Position numbers and translations under genes: made by a program
NCBI RefSeq assembly: GCF_008065095.1
Contig: NZ_CP042911.1
Coordinates: forward strand, 1,320,001 to 1,352,000
Source of the DNA: Gemmata obscuriglobus
Lineage (GTDB): Bacteria; Planctomycetota; Planctomycetia; Gemmatales; Gemmataceae
Reading direction: 5' to 3'
Length of the DNA: 32,000 bases
The notes under the pieces: model-generated
What the model saw: only the letters and a program-made list of their open reading frames with translations
Told to the model about the DNA's origin: nothing
Database searches by the model: none
In this document: piece after piece, positions 3,911 to 31,122 of the stretch
Layout: each line of letters starts with the position of its first letter
Position numbering within the stretch: position 1 is the first letter of the stretch

Positions 3911-4201
3911 TTCTGATTGAGTGTCAAGTCAAATATTGCGCGAGCGATCACTGATATTAAACTATCAATATCTTCGCAAGCAACTACCTCGCAACCGTTT
4001 GTGCCGATATCGTGAATGGTCTGGTGAAGCTAGCCGTGAACCCTTCTGTGTCTGGCATCGTCCATCCCGGCTCCGACGGACGAGCAGCCGCGGGACACCG
4101 GGTTCCGCCCCTGCCGGATCGGGTGCGTGGCGCCGTGCCGGACACCGGGGCATTAGCCCCCGGCGCGTTGACGGTGGAGCGGGGTGCGATATCTTGGAGA
4201 A

Positions 4202-4387
4202 CGCTGGACGGGTTCCGTGCCGCCCCATCGGGCGGCGCGGACGAAGAGGGAAGCCGGTGCGATTCCGGCGCAGGGCCGCTGCTGTGTTCGGCCAGAGCTT
4301 CGCGCAACTTGAGCCACTGCGGGCGACCGCGGGAAGGCCGCGTGAGGCTCGCTAAGAGCCGTTAGCCAGAAGACCTGCCCGTCAGCG
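4202..4387 (+). promoter_or_regulatory. Cobalamin (B12) riboswitch, copy 2
   Basis: Same P1 (4202-4212 / 4378-4387), same GGGAAGCCGGTGCGATTCCGG core, and B12 box AGCCAGAAGACCTGCC at 4364-4379. Confidence 0.85.
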
Positions 4388-4412
4388 ATTCCACTGTTCG
4401 AGGCCCCGGACC

Positions 4413-14033: not shown

Positions 14034-14567
14034 TTAGCGGAAGCTGTCGGGGTTCAACGCGGCCCGGCGGCGCTGGTACGCGGCGTAAGCCCGACCAAAC
14101 GCCTGAGCCTTAACGATTTCTCGGACGCTCTTTTTGATGCCGTAAGCGGCAACCCCGATCCCGATCAGCGGGAAGAGCACCTTGGCCAGAACGAACGGTC
14201 CGTTGGACGGAAATTGGCTCGTAATTCCAAACGCCATTGCGGTCCAGAACCCGCCGAACACGCCGACGGCGATCGCGGCACTGAACCCCTCACCTGTGGT
14301 TGGGGCGTACTGCCGCCCGTCCTTCGCGGTCACCAAGTGCCGCTCCCGCTCCTGCTCCCACTCTCGGTCGATGCGCTCGATCGCGTCCCGGTAGCGAGTC
14401 GCCGCGCGGTGCCGCGCCTGGGCCTCGGCCACCGGATCGGGCCGCGGTTCCGGCGCGGGTCCCAGTTGTGCCAGGATTGCGGCCTTTGCGTGCGCGAACT
14501 CCGTGTCCGTCAGGGTGCCGTTCCAGCGCAGCCCTTCGAGCTTTTTCAACTCGTCCGCGATGCTCAC
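14034..14567 (-). CDS. Membrane protein with N-terminal SHOCT-like motif
   Basis: GTG start overlaps the upstream TGA (GTGA at 14564-14567). ADELKKLEGLRWNGTLTDTEFAHAKAAIL resembles SHOCT. Two hydrophobic helices (AAIAVGVFGGFWTAMAFGI, VLFPLIGIGVAAYGI). Confidence 0.6.
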   Translation of the reverse strand: MSIADELKKLEGLRWNGTLTDTEFAHAKAAILAQLGPAPEPRPDPVAEAQARHRAATRYRDAIERIDREWEQERERHLVTAKDGRQYAPTTGEGFSAAIAVGVFGGFWTAMAFGITSQFPSNGPFVLAKVLFPLIGIGVAAYGIKKSVREIVKAQAFGRAYAAYQRRRAALNPDSFR

Positions 14568-15724
14568 GTCGATCCCCCTTCACCTGGAATGAGGAGGCAA
14601 GCCAGCAGTTCGCGCTCGAACACGGCCCAGTCCAGCCCGGTGGCGAACACCTCGACCCGACTGTCGCGCCGGTACGCCGTGGGATTCACGCTGAGCGCGC
14701 TCCCCGCCCGGTTCACGGCCGCCCACTCGTCCGGCAGGTGAAACACGCCCTTCAGGCGCGTGACCTCACGGGTATTCGCCAGAAGGGCGAGCAGCTTGGC
14801 CTCGTCGAACACGATTTGCGGGTCGAACACCCACCCGCACGCCGGCCCGCCGGCCGAAAGGTAACGTTTGACGCCGGAATGTTTCTCCTCGTTCCCTTCG
14901 GGGGGAGAGAAAGGCAACCTGCCCCCCGGCCCCCTCCCTGAAGGGAGGGGGAGAGAAGCCGCTTCTCCAGTGGCTTGCGAGTCTGGTGCGCTCAGCGGAC
15001 CAGACGAACTCCCCCTCCCTTCAGGGAGGGGGCCGGGGGGTAGGTTGCCTTTCTCTCCCCCTCCTTTCCCAGGGGCGGGGGCCGGGAAGCGAGGTTGCGG
15101 GAACAGCGGCAGCCGTTCGTCGTTCGCGCTGAGGTCGAGCCACGCCGGATCGAGGCGCCCCTGCGTCGTGCCCGCGATGAGGAGCTTGGGCGGGAACAGC
15201 CCGTTCGCCCAGCTCTGGAAGTCCGAGACGAGTTCGGGCGCGGCGGCGTCGAGCTTGTTCATCACCAGCACGTCCGCCATCTGGATCTGGTCCACGAAGA
15301 CCGGGTTGTCGCGCATCTCCGGCTTCGCGAAGTCGTGCGGATCGACGATGCCGATCGTGGCCCGCACGTCGAGCCGCCCGTGGTAGCTCATGCGGAGCGA
15401 GTCGAGGAGGCGGGCCGGGTGCCCGAGCCCCGTGGTCTCGATGATGAGCCGTTCGGGCCGGGCCTCGAGCAGCAGGAAGTGGATCGCCACCGGCAGGAAC
15501 GGCGCGCTGGCACAGCACACGCACCCGCCGCCCACCTCGCGCACCGTGACGCCCTCGGGGGCGCTGCCCTCGATCAGGGCGTCGTCGATGGAGACGGCGC
15601 CGTACTCGTTCACCAGCACGGCCCACCGCGAGCCCTTCTCCTTGCGCTGAAGGAGGTCGATCACGGCGGTGGTCTTCCCGACCCCGAGGAAGCCGGTAAT
15701 CAGGTTGGTCGGGACGGCGTGCAT
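14564..15724 (-). CDS. COG0523 / CobW-family G3E GTPase (metallochaperone-like) with repeat-encoded linker
   Basis: ATG 15724. ITGFLGVGKTT (P-loop), GGGCVCC (CxCC metal motif), IIETTGLGHP, LVMNKLD. CobW_C-like tail GWVFDPQIVFDEAKLLALL...RLKGVF. The track ORF start (16174) is an extension. Confidence 0.85.
   Translation of the reverse strand: MHAVPTNLITGFLGVGKTTAVIDLLQRKEKGSRWAVLVNEYGAVSIDDALIEGSAPEGVTVREVGGGCVCCASAPFLPVAIHFLLLEARPERLIIETTGLGHPARLLDSLRMSYHGRLDVRATIGIVDPHDFAKPEMRDNPVFVDQIQMADVLVMNKLDAAAPELVSDFQSWANGLFPPKLLIAGTTQGRLDPAWLDLSANDERLPLFPQPRFPAPAPGKGGGEKGNLPPGPLPEGRGSSSGPLSAPDSQATGEAASLPLPSGRGPGGRLPFSPPEGNEEKHSGVKRYLSAGGPACGWVFDPQIVFDEAKLLALLANTREVTRLKGVFHLPDEWAAVNRAGSALSVNPTAYRRDSRVEVFATGLDWAVFERELLACLLIPGEGGST
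14901..15061. repeat. 161-bp palindromic (MITE-like) element embedded in frame in the COG0523 gene
   Basis: 52-nt arms 14901-14952 and 15010-15061 are reverse complements at 51/52 positions (GGGGGAGAGAAAGGCAACCTGCCCCCCGGCCCCCTCCCTGAAGGGAGGGGGA). Each arm holds a nested CCCTCCC..GGGAGGG hairpin, and the centre has two more small hairpins. Confidence 0.75.
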
Positions 15725-15786
15725 CGGCTCTTTCGTGCGGTGAAGCGGCGCGGCTGGCACCGTTACTATACCGCGCGCGGTCGAGT

Positions 15787-16191
15787 TCAATCGCGGCGCT
15801 GCCCCGCCTTCTCCACGGGCTTCGTGGGGGCGGCAAAGTACCTCTTCGCCTCCGCCAACGTCTTGAACTCGGTCATCTGCACCACGTCGGACACCGGCGT
15901 CCAGACGCGCTTGCCGGCCGCCGCCTTCGCGGCCTCGTCGTCGCCGTAGTCGGGTACGGTGCCGACGATGAACGCGCGGCCCCCGAGGTGGGCGATCGTC
16001 GGCTTCTCGTACAGCGCGTACCCCGAATCGCTTTTCGAGTCCTTCGGTTTTGTGACGATGTAGAGGACAATGTCGCCGAAGGAGTGCTCGATCTCCGTGC
16101 CCCTGACGGGCGGTTCCCCGCCGGCCCGGCCGAAAAGAAGAACGACGCACGTGGCGGCGACCGCGAGCAGGCACATCGAACCGTATCGCAT
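15787..16191 (-). CDS. Hypothetical exported protein
   Basis: ATG 16191 after GGAGA. MRYGSMCLLAVAATCVVLLFG is signal-like. No family recognised. Confidence 0.5.
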   Translation of the reverse strand: MRYGSMCLLAVAATCVVLLFGRAGGEPPVRGTEIEHSFGDIVLYIVTKPKDSKSDSGYALYEKPTIAHLGGRAFIVGTVPDYGDDEAAKAAAGKRVWTPVSDVVQMTEFKTLAEAKRYFAAPTKPVEKAGQRRD

Positions 16192-16984
16192 CCGTAATCT
16201 CCGCGTCGAAGGTGCCCGAACCGTGTTGCGCGACGACATGGGCGCAGGAGTGCTGCCGGGTCGTCCGGGATAGTGATGCTATTCAGTCACTGCAACGGGT
16301 GCAAGAACGAACACGCGCGGTGCGTGTGCAATGTCAACGACGGGCCACGGACGCGAGCGTCGCGCCGTCGCGGGGACGGCAAGACGCCGGAAGTTGGACC
16401 GCCCGGACCGGCAGCGGGGCGGGGGCGGGGGGATCACTTCGACCGGCCCACCGCGGACCAACCGCCGCTGACGATCATCCGGCCGCGCCAGCACCCGACC
16501 ATCAAGATACTCGGGTTACGGCTCGGGGTGCCCGACTCGACCGTCAGTCGGGTCCGGAACCGGTGCGTGCCGCCGGCCGTCGCACCGAACCGGTCCGTCG
16601 TGTCGATTCGGGGCCGGACGTTTCAGGGTGCGTCCGCGGTTTGATCCGTGCGACTTTCGAGTTCCCAGGCTCCGTTTGTCTGCGGGCTATCGGCCCTCCG
16701 TGCGAACGGGAGTTACCGGACGGCCCCTTCGAGCGTGAACGAAACGGTGTTTGGAGACGGTGCCCCCCGGCCGGGGGTGAAGTGCTTGGTGACTGGTAAC
16801 GCCCCAACTCTTGAGCCGCGACGGTCGGCACAATTCTAATTCAATCGCACAAATACACGAAGTCGCACAAGGTCCAGATCGAAAGCGACAGGACTCGGTT
16901 CCACCTACTCAAACGAAAGGATTTCCCCTCGATTCGGCGTAACGGCTCCCCAAAAGACGCTGTTCTTGATTTCTTGCCGCACGG

Positions 16985-17050
16985 AGCCCACACCTCCTTG
17001 CGCACCAGCGCCGGGGTCTTGCACCGCAGCACGTCCATCCCCAACATCAC
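16985..17050 (-). pseudogene. Possible IS4-family transposase C-terminal fragment
   Basis: LGMDVLRCKTPALVRKEVWA resembles the conserved C-terminal ...RxKxPxMVRxExW... stretch of IS4-type DDE transposases. It is only ~20 aa and abuts the IS110 fragment. Confidence 0.25.
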
Positions 17051-17880
17051 CGTGGAAGTTCACCCGGCTGAAGCGCAAGACGGACCACGACGCCGCCCAG
17101 CGGCTGGCCGAGCTCGAGGCCATCGGCCAGTTGCCCACGGTCACCATGCCCGACCCGCGCACCCGCCAGCGGCGGCTGCTGATCGCGTTCCGACAGGAGT
17201 TGGTCGGGCAGCGGGTGGCCTGTCAGAACCGGATCCGCGCGCTGTTCGCGGCCCACGCGGTGGCCATGCCCGCCGGTGCCAAGGCGTGGACCGCGGACGG
17301 GCTGGACGTACTCGACGCCGAGGCCCGGGAGCTGAGCGACTGTGGCCCGGACGAGTTGTGGCGCGGGATGCTCGGGATCGCGGTGGCCCAGTACCGGGAC
17401 CTGGAGCACCGGATCGCCGAGACCGAGCGGGCCCTGGACCAGCTGAGCGCGGCCGACCCGGGCACCCAACTGTTGCTGTCGATCCCGGGCGTGGGTCCAC
17501 GCACCGCCGAGGCGGTGGCCGCGCACCTGGGGGATGCCAACCGGTTCGCGTCGGGCAAGCAGGTGGGCGCGTACGCGGGCCTGGTGCCGACCCAGTACCA
17601 GAGCGGTGTGACGGACCGCAAGGGGCGCATCACGCGGCGCGGCCCGGCGGTGCTGCGGAAGCTGCTGGTCGAGTGCTCGTGGTGCATGTTGCGGTACAAC
17701 CCGTGGGCCCAGGCCCAGTACAAGCGGCTCACCGGTGGCGGGACCGCGCGCAAGAAGCCGGCCATCGTGGCGGTGGCGCGGAAGCTGTTGGTGCGGTGCT
17801 GGGCCATGCTCCGCACCAACCAGCGGTGGCGCGACGACACACCCCGACCCGAAGCCACGACCGCACCCGCGACCGGATGA
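17041..17880 (+). pseudogene. IS110-family transposase, 5'-truncated (DEDD N-terminal domain missing)
   Basis: KRKTDHDAAQRLAEL...LLSIPGVGPRTAEAVAAHLGDANRFASGKQVGAYAGLVPTQYQSGVTDRKGRITRRGPAVLRKLLVECSW is the Transposase_20 / IS110 C-terminal domain. The homology starts about 90 aa into a normal protein, and there is no credible start codon. Confidence 0.8.
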
Positions 17881-18341: not shown

Positions 18342-18687
18342 TCGCTCACCTCCGCGGTTCCGGGCGATACGCTTCGCACCGCGCATCCGCGGAGCCCGGG
18401 CCACCGGTGCGGCTCTGCGGAGCACCACCGACCCCACGCGCCGTGTCCCGGCACATCGGAGACCACCCACCACCGACACCCGCGGCGGCGAGCCGCGCCG
18501 ACCACCGACGGGCGCCACGCGGAGCACCACCGACCCGCAATCACCGTGTCCCCGCCCGCAACCGGCCACGCCCAACCGCCACTCGCGGCGACGAGCCGCG
18601 CGGGCCATCGGCGGGGACCACACGACCGTCTGACCCGACGCGGACCACACCGTCAGCGCCGCACGCGCCCTCATGCGGCTTGGGGTG
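18342..18687. repeat. Low-complexity ORF-less cassette, copy A
   Basis: 346 bp, C/A-rich and T-poor on the + strand. GGAGCACCACCGACC recurs at 18419 and 18521 (102-nt period). Homologous to copies B-F. Confidence 0.7.
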
Positions 18688-19926: not shown

Positions 19927-20286
19927 TCGCTCGCCTCCGCGGTTCCGGGCGACACGCCGAGCTTGGCGCATCCGCGGAACCCGCGGCACCGGTGCGGCCG
20001 AGCGGAGCCCCACCGACTCGAATCGCCGTGTCGCGGCCCACCGGTGGCCACCCATCACCGCACCTCGCGGCGACGAGCCGCGCCCGCCCTGACGCGCGCC
20101 ACGCGGAGCACCACCGACCCGAACCGCCGTGTCCCCACCCGCACCCCGGCCACGCCCAACCACACCTCGCGGCGACGAGCCGCGCCCGCCCCGACCGGCA
20201 CCACGCGGAGCCACCACCGACGCGTGGGCGTCACCTTCGCGGACCACACGCCCACCACCGCACGCGCGATCCAGAACGCGAAGGTG
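19927..20286. repeat. Low-complexity ORF-less cassette, copy B
   Basis: 360 bp. GCGGAGC.. unit starts at 20002, 20103 and 20205 (101/102-nt period). Confidence 0.7.
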
Positions 20287-20377: not shown

Positions 20378-20733
20378 TCGATGCCCTCGGCGGTTCGGGG
20401 TCGCACGCCGAGCGCCGCGCATCCGCAGAGCCCGCGGCACCGACGCGGCTGGGCGGAGCACCACCGACCCGACGCGCCGTGTCCCGGCACACCGGAGGCC
20501 GCCCACCACCGCACCTCGCGGCGATGAGCCGCGCCGACCACCCACGGGCCACACGCGGAGCACCACCGACCCGCACCGCCGTGTCCCGACACATCGGAGG
20601 CCACGCCCAACCGCAAGCTCGCGGCGATGAGTCGCGCCAGACCCGACCGGCACCACGCGAAGCCCGACGCGCGCGGTTCACCACCGCGGACCACACGCAC
20701 ACCGCCGCACGCGCGCTCCTGCACGCGATGGTT
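20378..20733. repeat. Low-complexity ORF-less cassette, copy C
   Basis: 356 bp. Unit starts at 20453, 20555 and 20657 (102-nt period). About 25 T in 356 nt by hand count. Confidence 0.7.
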
Positions 20734-25419: not shown

Positions 25420-25753
25420 TCGCTCACATCCGCGCCGCGCATCCGCGGATGCCCGCCCACCGGTGCGACCGGGCGGAGCACCACCGAACCACGGCGCCGT
25501 GTCCCGACACATCGGGGGCCACCCACCACCGCCACACGCGGCGATGAGCCGCGCCCGCGACCGATCGGTCTCAGCGGAGCACCACCGACCCGCACCACCG
25601 TGTCCCCATCCGCACCCGGCCACAACCACCGCAAGCTCGCGGCGACGAGCCGCGCCAGCCCCAACCGGCACCACGCGAAGCCCGACGCGCGCGGTTCACC
25701 ACCGCGGACCACACGCACACCGCCGCACGCGCGCCCTCATGCACGCGATGGTT
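25420..25753. repeat. Low-complexity ORF-less cassette, copy D
   Basis: 334 bp. Unit starts at 25473, 25574 and 25675 (101-nt period, not a multiple of 3). Confidence 0.7.
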
Positions 25754-26109: not shown

Positions 26110-26263
26110 GCCGAACTTCGGAGCTCAGGCGCGCGCGGCTGGATAAAGCTGCGCTCCCGAGCCGCGACCGCGCGTCGCCTGCAGCGTCTGGTTCGGCGGC
26201 GCATCACACTTCGCAGGCTTTGCGAGGATGTGACGCACCCCGCGCCTGAGCTACGAGGTTCGG
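26110..26263 (-). repeat. attC-like repeat 14, sequence-unrelated 'twin-arm' variant (154 nt)
   Basis: The left arm GCCGAAC-TTCGG-AGCTCAGGCGCGCGCGG pairs either with the inner arm CCGCGaCCGCGCGtCGCCTGcAGC-GTCTG-GTTCGGC (ends 26197, bulged) or perfectly with the outer arm CGCGCCTGAGCT-ACGAG-GTTCGGC (ends 26263). Confidence 0.65.
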
Positions 26264-26407
26264 CCTGGTCGCGCCGAGCCCCGAGTTCGCGGGACCACCA
26301 CCCCGGGCCGGGTTCCGGGGCGGCGCCGTCGCGCTTGGGAGGGGGGCGACGGGTCCCCACACTGTGCCGCACCGGAACCCGCGGTTGCAGAGAACCGGCG
26401 CGACCAG
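26264..26407 (-). other. ORF-less mini-cassette (144 bp) with terminal 12-bp inverted repeat
   Basis: CTGGTCGCGCCG (26264-26275) pairs with CGGCGCGACCAG (26397-26408). No credible ORF or SD. Confidence 0.5.
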
Positions 26408-26498
26408 ACCGAACGAACAGCTCACCTGCACCGCCATCACCGGATGAGCGGTGCGTCACAAGTCAGCGGGCGGTGTCAGGTGCAGCGCCGGGTTCGGC
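26408..26498 (-). repeat. attC-like repeat 15
   Basis: 91 nt, loop type a. The left R box is ACCGAAC. Confidence 0.75.
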
Positions 26499-28589: not shown

Positions 28590-28923
28590 TTCTGCGCTGG
28601 CATTTGCGGTTCCGCGGAGCCCGCGCCCGCGTCGCACATCCGCGGAGCCACCACCGATCCGCACCACCGTGCCGCGGCACACCGGGGGCCACCCAACACC
28701 GCACCTCGCGGCGGTGAGCCGCGCCAACCCCGACCGGCACCACGCGGAGCACCACCGACTCGCACCACCGTGTCCCAAGGCACTGCCAGCCACGCCCACC
28801 CGCACCTCGCGGCGGTGAGCCGCGCCCGCACCCACGGGCACCATGCGAAGCCCGACACCCGGGGTTCACTTACGCGGACCACGCGCCCACCACCACCGCA
28901 CGCGCGATCCAGCAGCGTCGGGT
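28590..28923. repeat. Low-complexity ORF-less cassette, copy E
   Basis: 334 bp. Shares the TTCTGCGCTGGCAT.TGCGGTTCCGCGGAGCCCGCGC leader with copy F. Confidence 0.7.
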
Positions 28924-29076
28924 GCCGAACCAGGAGCTGAGCTGCAAGCCGCCCCTCTCAGGACGGTCTCCCCTTGCTCCCGCAGCGGCTTGTCAGCTCC
29001 AGCGGGGGGTTCGGCCGACGGCCGCCTCCTTCCGCCAGAGGATGAGTGAGCGTTGCAGCTCAGCTCCGGGTTCGGC
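28924..29076 (-). repeat. attC-like repeat 20, second sequence-unrelated 'twin-arm' variant (153 nt)
   Basis: The left arm GCCGAAC-CAGGA-GCTGAGCTGCAAGCCGC pairs with the inner arm GCGGCTTGtCAGCTcCAGC-GGGGG-GTTCGGC (ends 29015) or with the outer arm TTGCAGCTCAGCT-CCGG-GTTCGGC (ends 29076, no bulges). Confidence 0.65.
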
Positions 29077-29249
29077 CGCCGCCGGATGAGCTCAGCCCAC
29101 CGGGGACATCGCACGGCGGGAGATCACCATGCGACCTCAGGCCGCTCGGATCGGCGGGCCCTCGCCGGTCGCCTTCACCGAGGTGGAGGTGGCGACAACC
29201 TTACGACCGCCCGCCGATCCGCGGCGCGTGCAACCACCTCACGGCGGCG
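29077..29249 (-). other. ORF-less mini-cassette (173 bp) with nested hairpins
   Basis: CGGATCGGCGGG (29147-29158) pairs with CCCGCCGATCCG (29210-29221), enclosing GTCGCC..GGCGAC. Only ORFs of 13 codons or fewer on the minus strand. Confidence 0.5.
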
Positions 29250-29340
29250 GCCGAACATAAAGCTCACCTGCACCGCCCTCACCGGATGAGCGGTGCGTCC
29301 CGAATCAGCCGGCGGTGTCAGGTGCAGCGCCGGGTTCGGC
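29250..29340 (-). repeat. attC-like repeat 21
   Basis: 91 nt, loop type a. Confidence 0.8.
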
Positions 29341-30787: not shown

Positions 30788-31122
30788 TTCTGCGCTGGCA
30801 TGTGCGGTTCCGCGGAGCCCGCGCTTGCACCGCGCATCCGCGGAGCCACCACCGACCCGCACCACCATGCCGCGGCACACCGGGGGCCACCCACCACGGC
30901 ACCGCGCGGCGATGAGCCGCGCCGCCCACCGACCGGTATCGGCGGAGCACCACCGATTCGACGCGCCGTGTCCCCACGCGCCTCCGCCCACGCCCAACCG
31001 CACCTCGCGGCGATGAGCCGCGCCAGACACGACCGGCACCACGCGGAGCACCACACGCGAGGTTCACCCATGCGGACCACACGCTCAGCGCCGCCGCACG
31101 CGCGCTCCAGAACGCGAGGGTG
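30788..31122. repeat. Low-complexity ORF-less cassette, copy F
   Basis: 335 bp, closest to copy E. Confidence 0.7.

Follow-up and report, generated by a model that had tools for sequence, protein, structure and literature searches.

The window analysed here (G000:1320001-1352000, 32,000 nt in full; positions without a prefix refer to it) lies in the 9.0-Mb, single-contig genome of Gemmata obscuriglobus, which has a GC content of 67%. From position ~18250 to its end it consists of the distal part of a ~39-kb integron cassette array that spans 1.338-1.377 Mb of the genome. The head of the array carries a co-oriented integron integrase gene on the minus strand (G000 1377432-1378373; 427 bits against TIGR02249, cut-off 265), the product of which is the only full-score match to this model in the genome and is 97% identical to its closest named relative, the integrase of Gemmata algarum JC673. 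The 'inverted integrase' layout, with attI downstream of an integrase gene that has the orientation of the cassettes, was found in this genome (G000 1377070-1378373) and in a MAG labelled Fimbriiglobus (L106:10001-11083). A genome-wide search revealed ~340 attC-like hairpins with GCCGAAC...GTTCGGC cores, which belong to one integron and to several arrays that lack an integrase. Outside the cassette arrays there are also perfect palindromes ending in CGAAC...GTTCG (G000 695318-695441, 706281-706354, 711845-711896 and 8795083-8795131), hairpin repeats that probably have no relation to attCs.

The distal end of the array is adjoined by an IS110-family transposase ORF (16966-17880, plus strand; Pfam Transposase_20 and DEDD_Tnp_IS110), and a gene encoding a CobW-family GTPase is located at 14564-16174 on the minus strand. 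Two cobalamin riboswitch aptamers (Rfam RF00174, 96 and 98 bits) were identified at 2683-2887 and 4193-4396 on the plus strand. They belong to a direct repeat of 1.5 kb and precede one paralogous gene each; the start of these genes, translated by eye, encodes a prepilin-type 'FTLIELLV' N-terminus. Inside the array, gene-less cassettes made of ~100-nt tandem units with a small GCGGC-TCATC-GCCGC hairpin are located at 18400-18650, 19990-20240, 20440-20700, 25460-25730, 28650-28900 and 30850-31100, and in the main integron this type also provides the first cassette behind attI. Ordinary attCs likewise have a CTCATC-type loop in their terminal loop, and so do the sites described below in their interval X.

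Anatomy of the twin-arm attC

The element under study is a compound, twin-arm attC of 155 nt on the minus strand (family A, 26110-26264). The minus strand was assigned as top strand because the extra bases sit on the arm bearing 5'-AAC-3', following the published rule that the top strand has its extrahelical bases on the AAC-bearing R''-L'' arm (PMC5027507, PMC2727003). On the minus strand, this arm also carries the two extra bases in the array's ordinary sites, and cassette ORFs with ribosome-binding sites directly after R' are found on this strand too. Read in this direction, the gene-less cassette starts at the crossover point in the R' box of an upstream ordinary attC (GTTCGGT, 26402-26408). 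Its first 12 nt, s1 (CTGGTCGCGCCG, 26390-26401), are followed by the cassette body (26277-26389), a long conserved hairpin with a C-rich loop (CCCCCCTCCCAAG) and without a conserved frame, and by s1' (CGGCGCGACCAG, 26265-26276), which is complementary to s1, adjoins the outer arm and prolongs its helix beyond the R box. The outer, putatively masking arm of 24 nt (26241-26264), a bulge-free complement of L'-R', is composed of R''o (GCCGAAC, 26264-26258), the outer spacer CTCGT (26257-26253) and L''o (AGCTCAGGCGCG, 26252-26241). It is separated by an interval X of 43 nt (26198-26240) from the inner, canonical arm (26168-26197), which comprises R''i (GCCGAAC, 26197-26191), the unpaired spacer CAGAC and L''i (GCTgCAGGCGaCGCGCGG) with g and a as extrahelical bases; the outer arm lies 67 nt upstream of the inner one. 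The variable terminal structure (VTS) of the inner attC, 29 nt in length, occupies 26139-26167, and the crossover arm L'-R' common to both pairings (26110-26138) consists of L' (CCGCGCGCGCCTGAGCT, 26138-26122), the spacer CCGAA (26121-26117) and R' (GTTCGGC, 26116-26110).

An earlier, sequence-only reading of the same DNA had described such an element with its outer end at 26263; all the parts it listed were indeed present on the minus strand, the outer end being 26264 instead. Two successive R''-L'' arms sharing one downstream L'-R' arm were both located, and the stretch between the arms, said to form a hairpin of its own, corresponds to X (26240-26198), which folds as a hairpin of GCGTCACATCCTCGCA and TGCGAAGTGTGATGC. 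The inner site (26110-26197, 88 nt) has two extrahelical bases, which had been called typical of the repeats and which recurred in the same way in 288 other attC pairs of the genome. Its spacer CAGAC is complementary to CCGAA at 0/5 positions and was unpaired in the constrained fold, and its core boxes GCCGAAC/GTTCGGC are RYYYAAC-like and GTTRRRY-like, with a G at position 4 as in the ~340 sites of the genome. With these core boxes, L''/L' arms with extrahelical bases, an unpaired spacer, a place in an array with co-oriented neighbours and mobility as a unit, the inner site is an attC, the folded bottom strand of which would be the form recombined by the integrase. The outer pairing consists of a 7-bp R box and a 12-bp L box, both perfect, and a spacer paired at 3/5 positions, with no extra base, in agreement with the absence of bulges noted before. 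It does not qualify as an attC: extra bases were absent from the outer pairing in 15/15 lineages, and its spacer was complementary in most.

The same layout was found again at 28924-29076 on the minus strand (family B), as the sequence-only reading had stated. There, the outer arm spans 29076-29053, X 29052-29016, the inner arm 29015-28985, the VTS 28984-28954 and L'-R' 28953-28924. The remainder of this gene-less cassette (29077-29256, minus strand) contains s1' (CGGCGGCG, 29084-29077), the body, s1 (CGCCGCCG, 29249-29242) and the upstream R' (29256-29250). A third L''-like copy without an R'' box is located at 29089-29096 on the minus strand; it lies ~15-45 nt upstream of the outer R'' and changes in step with L' across lineages.

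Recurrence, mobility and covariation

A scan of the ~340 attC pairs of the genome revealed a second R''-L'' partner only in twin-arm families, and a second L'-R' partner for one R''-L'' arm in no case. The twin-arm plan is no accident, as had been argued from the two examples of the window: the scan excludes chance, and the plan recurs and covaries. In total, the genome contains 18 twin-arm sites in four sequence groups, namely family A (two identical copies, one in the window and one at G000 5213452), family B (10 copies), family C (one copy) and group D' (five copies, related to C). The original claim had been made dependent on further examples, and besides these 18 sites, the same plan was found in homologues from at least eight other Gemmata genomes and from the MAG labelled Fimbriiglobus (L106), where attI is immediately followed by two family-B cassettes in tandem. 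Outside the Gemmataceae, no twin arms were present among 32 recognisable attCs from 79 other integrase loci, a sample too small for a conclusion. In the literature searched (Gemmata integrons, ORF-less cassettes and alternative attC folds), we found neither a description of a second partner arm nor a paper on Gemmata integrons, and within this literature the element stands as a first example.

The family-A cassette has a length of 298 bp, and all twin-arm cassettes measure 282-333 bp with 139-173 nt ahead of the compound site. All carriers are gene-less, start codons and frames being broken by 1-2-nt indels between G000 and its homologues in G018. A reverse-strand ORF of family B, with an SD and an ATG, was discarded, since neither start nor frame was kept in G018. 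The identical 298-bp copy at G000 5213452 is followed by different downstream DNA, the 10 family-B copies have differing neighbours, and a copy follows an attI-like leader in G018. Since their neighbours differ, the twin-arm copies have moved as precise cassettes bounded at R' (G|TT). The cassette body forms a long hairpin with compensatory changes in 14/32 pairs and a conserved C-rich loop. Rfam, at gathering and E-value thresholds, gave nothing relevant to the element. Family A aligns here with families C/D/E, and the claim that the two examples of the window are unrelated in sequence did not fully hold, family A sharing this conserved body hairpin with those families. The replication orientation of the twin-arm arrays showed no consistent pattern, since their bottom strand serves as lagging-strand template in one replichore and as leading-strand template in the other. 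In subfamily D' (L060:1594-1740, corresponding to G000 7594304-7594450, plus four paralogues), the cleaved triplet of the bottom strand is AAT, not AAC; D' appears to be recombination-proficient, because its five copies have different neighbours.

In 15 lineages, 20-25 of 25 ungapped positions of the outer arm match the reverse complement of L'-spacer-R'. Seven outer spacers (GGCGG, CGCGG, GATGG, GTGG, AGCG, GATGA and CAGGA) complement their own 3' spacers fully or nearly, and a further one, CACGA, was found in L106; the inner spacers of the 15 lineages are not complementary to the 3' spacers. The R box covaries as well: in group D', R' is ATTCGGC and the outer R'' is GCCGAAT, the inner R'' still being GCCGAAC, and both spacers of the outer helix are jointly shortened to 4 nt. 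Over the alignment, 13/25 pairs of the outer arm and L'-R' had changed on both sides and 92.5% of the cells were paired; 0/500 shuffles attained these values, and pairing amounted to 25-41% with the partner slid by 1-3 columns. The paired-change counts were taken over an alignment of lineages that are related by descent and therefore overstate the number of independent events, but the number of distinct compensated states is nonetheless large. Between G000 and G018, both arms of family B are identical at 24-25/25 positions, at an overall cassette identity of 75%, and the extrahelical bases differ in identity but keep their position. The inner arm of family B has disruptive changes in 5/10 copies, and departures in the outer arm are confined to a single spacer position (two copies) and the terminal position.

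The complementarity extends across the crossover point. Just upstream of the outer R'', s1' is complementary to s1, the first cassette bases after the upstream R', over 12 nt (A), 8 nt (B), 6 nt (C), 5 nt (D') and 7 nt (L106); the corresponding extension amounts to 0-3 nt in ordinary cassettes (n=282) as opposed to 5-12 nt in twin-arm cassettes. A family-A homologue in G011 has a compensatory change in the s1/s1' stem. With the cassette ends joined, as in a circle or in tandem copies, s1'-R''o-spacer-L''o and L'-spacer-R'-s1 form a continuous helix of ~30-36 bp, and the excised circular bottom strand was predicted to fold into a rod made of this helix and the body hairpin. An inverted attC composed of the cassette start and the outer R'' was considered and discarded, as both strands read 5'-GTT...AAC-3', the reverse of attC polarity.

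Predicted folds and a proposed self-masking site

Folds were calculated with DNA parameters and refer to naked DNA at equilibrium, ignoring SSB, the integrase and the order of strand exposure. On either strand, the minimum-energy fold used the outer pairing. A comparison of the folding energies of the two conformers, as the sequence-only reading had proposed, came out in favour of the outer fold by 10-18 kcal/mol, and blocking the outer arm cost 14-25 kcal/mol. In the full element, the inner R box was paired with a probability of 1e-7 (A), 4e-8 to 9e-14 (B) and 8e-12 (C). With the outer 24 nt removed, this probability was 0.86-0.95 (A, B) and 0.16-0.19 (C), and the median for 22 ordinary attCs from this array, taken with flanks of equal length, was 0.81. 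In the array context the inner fold still reached no more than 3e-3, the predicted ensembles being messy because all R boxes are identical. A recombinogenic fold well below 0.1, which defines a low-pfold site, was obtained only when the outer arm was counted.

Integron recombination depends on the folding of attC into a recombinogenic hairpin. On balance, and with moderate confidence, we propose that the element acts as a conserved self-masking, bistable attC of a 298-bp gene-less cassette, in which the outer arm would be a cis-encoded mask or switch. To the anatomy, recurrence, covariation, thermodynamic dominance of the masked fold and continued cassette mobility established here, this proposal adds that the masked fold would form in vivo, would lower recombination and would be of benefit. 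When the bottom (recombining) strand is single-stranded, the outer arm would outcompete the inner arm for L'-R' and zip the crossover site into a continuous helix with neither extrahelical bases nor an unpaired spacer, presumably a very poor substrate for the integrase; in an excised single-stranded circle, the crossover helix and the body hairpin would yield a rod-like molecule. The canonical fold could be reached transiently during 5' to 3' unwinding of the bottom strand, which would expose the inner arm first, or by extrusion from duplex DNA, where only the inner site could extrude, or alternatively by integrase capture. Because twin-arm cassettes are clearly mobile, the mask would be no tight lock but at most a brake, and the active fold would have to be reached kinetically or through integrase capture.

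The sequence-only reading had considered a switch between recombination-competent and incompetent folds. The competition of two partners for one L'-R', predicted to be won by the outer one, supports this idea, and the inactivity of the masked form is suggested by analogy with published mutants. Recombination of mut20-VCR, which has no extrahelical bases and a fully paired spacer, was 'drastically affected' on both strands (Bouvier et al. 2009, PMC2727003). VCR-flanked cassettes with pfold values of 3e-3 and 8e-6, whose most stable fold is non-recombinogenic, showed no detectable excision, and natural attC sites with pfold down to 1e-7 were noted in the same study (Loot et al. 2017, PMC5371416). 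Deletion of the extrahelical bases alone did not lower bottom-strand recombination at some attC sites (Nivina et al. 2016, PMC5027507). We also considered the outer, strand-symmetric fold as the recombining form; it was expected to insert in both orientations, and against this expectation the twin-arm copies were co-oriented with their own arrays in 18/18 cases and permuted in none. Co-orientation does not discriminate between the folds, because a bottom strand excised as a circle would be inserted in the canonical orientation either way.

Compared with the canonical attCs of sedentary chromosomal integrons, such as the VCRs of Vibrio cholerae, the inner site is alike in R''/R', L''/L', extrahelical bases, spacer and loop, and VCR arrays, like the array described here, are headed by an integron integrase and have their boundaries at G|TT of R'. 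Unlike the VCRs, the twin-arm sites possess a conserved, covarying third arm outside the attC, which pairs with L'-R' and the first bases of the cassette; furthermore, their R box is GCCGAAC, with a G at position 4 of RYYYAAC, and the integrase is co-oriented with the cassettes. The outer conformer resembles mut20-VCR in that R box, spacer and L box are paired without bulges, but mut20-VCR was engineered from another site and assayed with IntI1 (PMC2727003), whereas the conformer described here is a natural one beside a canonical one. Low-pfold attCs share with the twin-arm sites a most stable fold that is not recombinogenic (PMC5371416). Their competing folds lie inside the attC, in its long VTS, whereas the sites described here have a dedicated 24-nt arm outside, which alone accounts for the predicted drop of P from 0.9 to 1e-7 or lower and which is conserved across lineages. 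The competing attC folds described so far arise incidentally from within the site; in the twin-arm sites, the external arm is dedicated to this pairing, conserved and covarying, and is predicted to lower the canonical fold by at least seven orders of magnitude and to pair across the junction of the cassette ends. The short, multi-copy Vibrio ORF-less paralogous cassettes (Boucher et al. 2006, PMC1382264) likewise have no conserved frame; the cassettes studied here differ in being GC-rich and in having a long conserved hairpin and a twin-arm attC. In its way of working, and in this respect only, the arrangement resembles the pairing in attenuators and riboswitches, in which one segment has two mutually exclusive partners that give an active and an inactive fold. 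Here the molecule would be ssDNA and not RNA, and the output would be site-specific recombination.

If the arm works as predicted, cassettes can encode their own recombination control, which would help to explain the persistence of large gene-less cassette arrays and would offer a natural design for switchable, structure-specific recombination sites. A more far-reaching version, which we put forward tentatively, is an ssDNA conformational switch gating integron recombination, in which a selfish or host-domesticated superfamily of gene-less cassettes would use its extra arm to toggle both the attC and the joined ends of the circle between the active canonical hairpin and an inactive, completely paired helix. 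If true, such cassettes would set their own rates of excision and insertion, or arrays would be stabilised, adding a new layer of control in integrons. For annotation, tools that score only R''..R' would miss the arm and rate these sites as highly recombinogenic.

Alternative explanations

The alternative that survives best, although we consider it unlikely, is a non-adaptive by-product: an R''-L'' unit of ~55-65 nt would have been tandem-duplicated by slippage, and its outer copy, devoid of any role, would have been perfected against L'-R' by template switching or by mismatch correction in the hairpin and tolerated since the cassette is gene-less. Quasi-palindrome correction is an established mutational process, and the covariation could stem from intrastrand repair or gene conversion in the hairpin and not from functional selection. 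In line with a duplication, the sequence ahead of the outer R'' resembles the interval X ahead of the inner R'', and the third L''-like copy further upstream also tracks L'. A single old duplication, however, would decay, whereas the arm was kept through many compensatory changes, including spacer indels and the change of the R box. That these changes keep the arm across species and genera also leads us to reject the fossil of an aberrant recombination or fold-back event that the sequence-only reading had listed. If the direct repeats were homogenised, the outer arm would also acquire the extrahelical bases and the spacer of the inner one, which was not seen, the complementarity reaches into the cassette start and thus outside any duplicated unit, and in family B the disruptive changes are found in the inner arm (half of the copies) and the outer arm is nearly unchanged. 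A mutational origin by tandem duplication and palindrome correction may account for the rise of the arm, but not for its pattern of conservation.

Less probable still, but a serious alternative because the ~30-36-bp helix is complete only across joined cassette ends, is a role in the circle instead of a brake, in which the free cassette would be protected by its rod fold, or the rod would be a signal, for instance for protein binding or the priming of the complementary strand, and these selfish gene-less cassettes would thereby become more successful. The multi-copy state of the cassettes, their occurrence as first cassettes after attI and the conserved loop motif of the body hairpin are compatible with such a role. 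The idea is entirely inferential, however, the same helix buries the R box that has to be cleaved for insertion, and we know of no integron step that needs a signal on the circle.

We regard a role in RNA or transcription as improbable. The GC-rich stem and the body hairpin would then be an insulator, a terminator, a processing site or a small RNA, and the match to L'-R' would be a way of making a stem from an attC. A gene-less cassette with conserved, covarying hairpins would suit this explanation, and regulatory roles of gene-less cassettes are discussed for other integrons (PMC8876359). Against it, no Rfam match and no U-tract after the stem were found, and the stem is made precisely of the integrase-binding boxes and spans the crossover point. 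Several mismatches in this helix, moreover, read as G-T in the bottom strand of the DNA and as C-A in the transcribed-sense strand, a weak signal from a hand tally (12 vs 6).

Finally, the two successive R'' boxes at ~60-nt spacing could recall a separate, degraded attC or the bound of a 62-nt 'empty' cassette, as the sequence-only reading had offered, but we reject this as very improbable, as there is no L'-R' arm between the two boxes, the outer arm is devoid of the extra bases present in every ordinary R''-L'' arm here, all copies move as one unit with a single boundary pair (R' boxes 282-333 bp apart), and the outer unit is neither missing from any copy nor found by itself.

Two rearranged homologues were observed among the relatives. 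In the family-A homologue of G011 (L053/L038, G011:C354:6422-6800), both A-type R''-L'' arms are kept and the L'-R' arm is foreign, being identical to that of the upstream attC, which makes it a chimeric site in which neither arm has its partner. In a family-B homologue (L006, G019:C1235:878-1186), the outer and inner arms are kept and the sequence diverges abruptly at the expected L'-R', by truncation or rearrangement.
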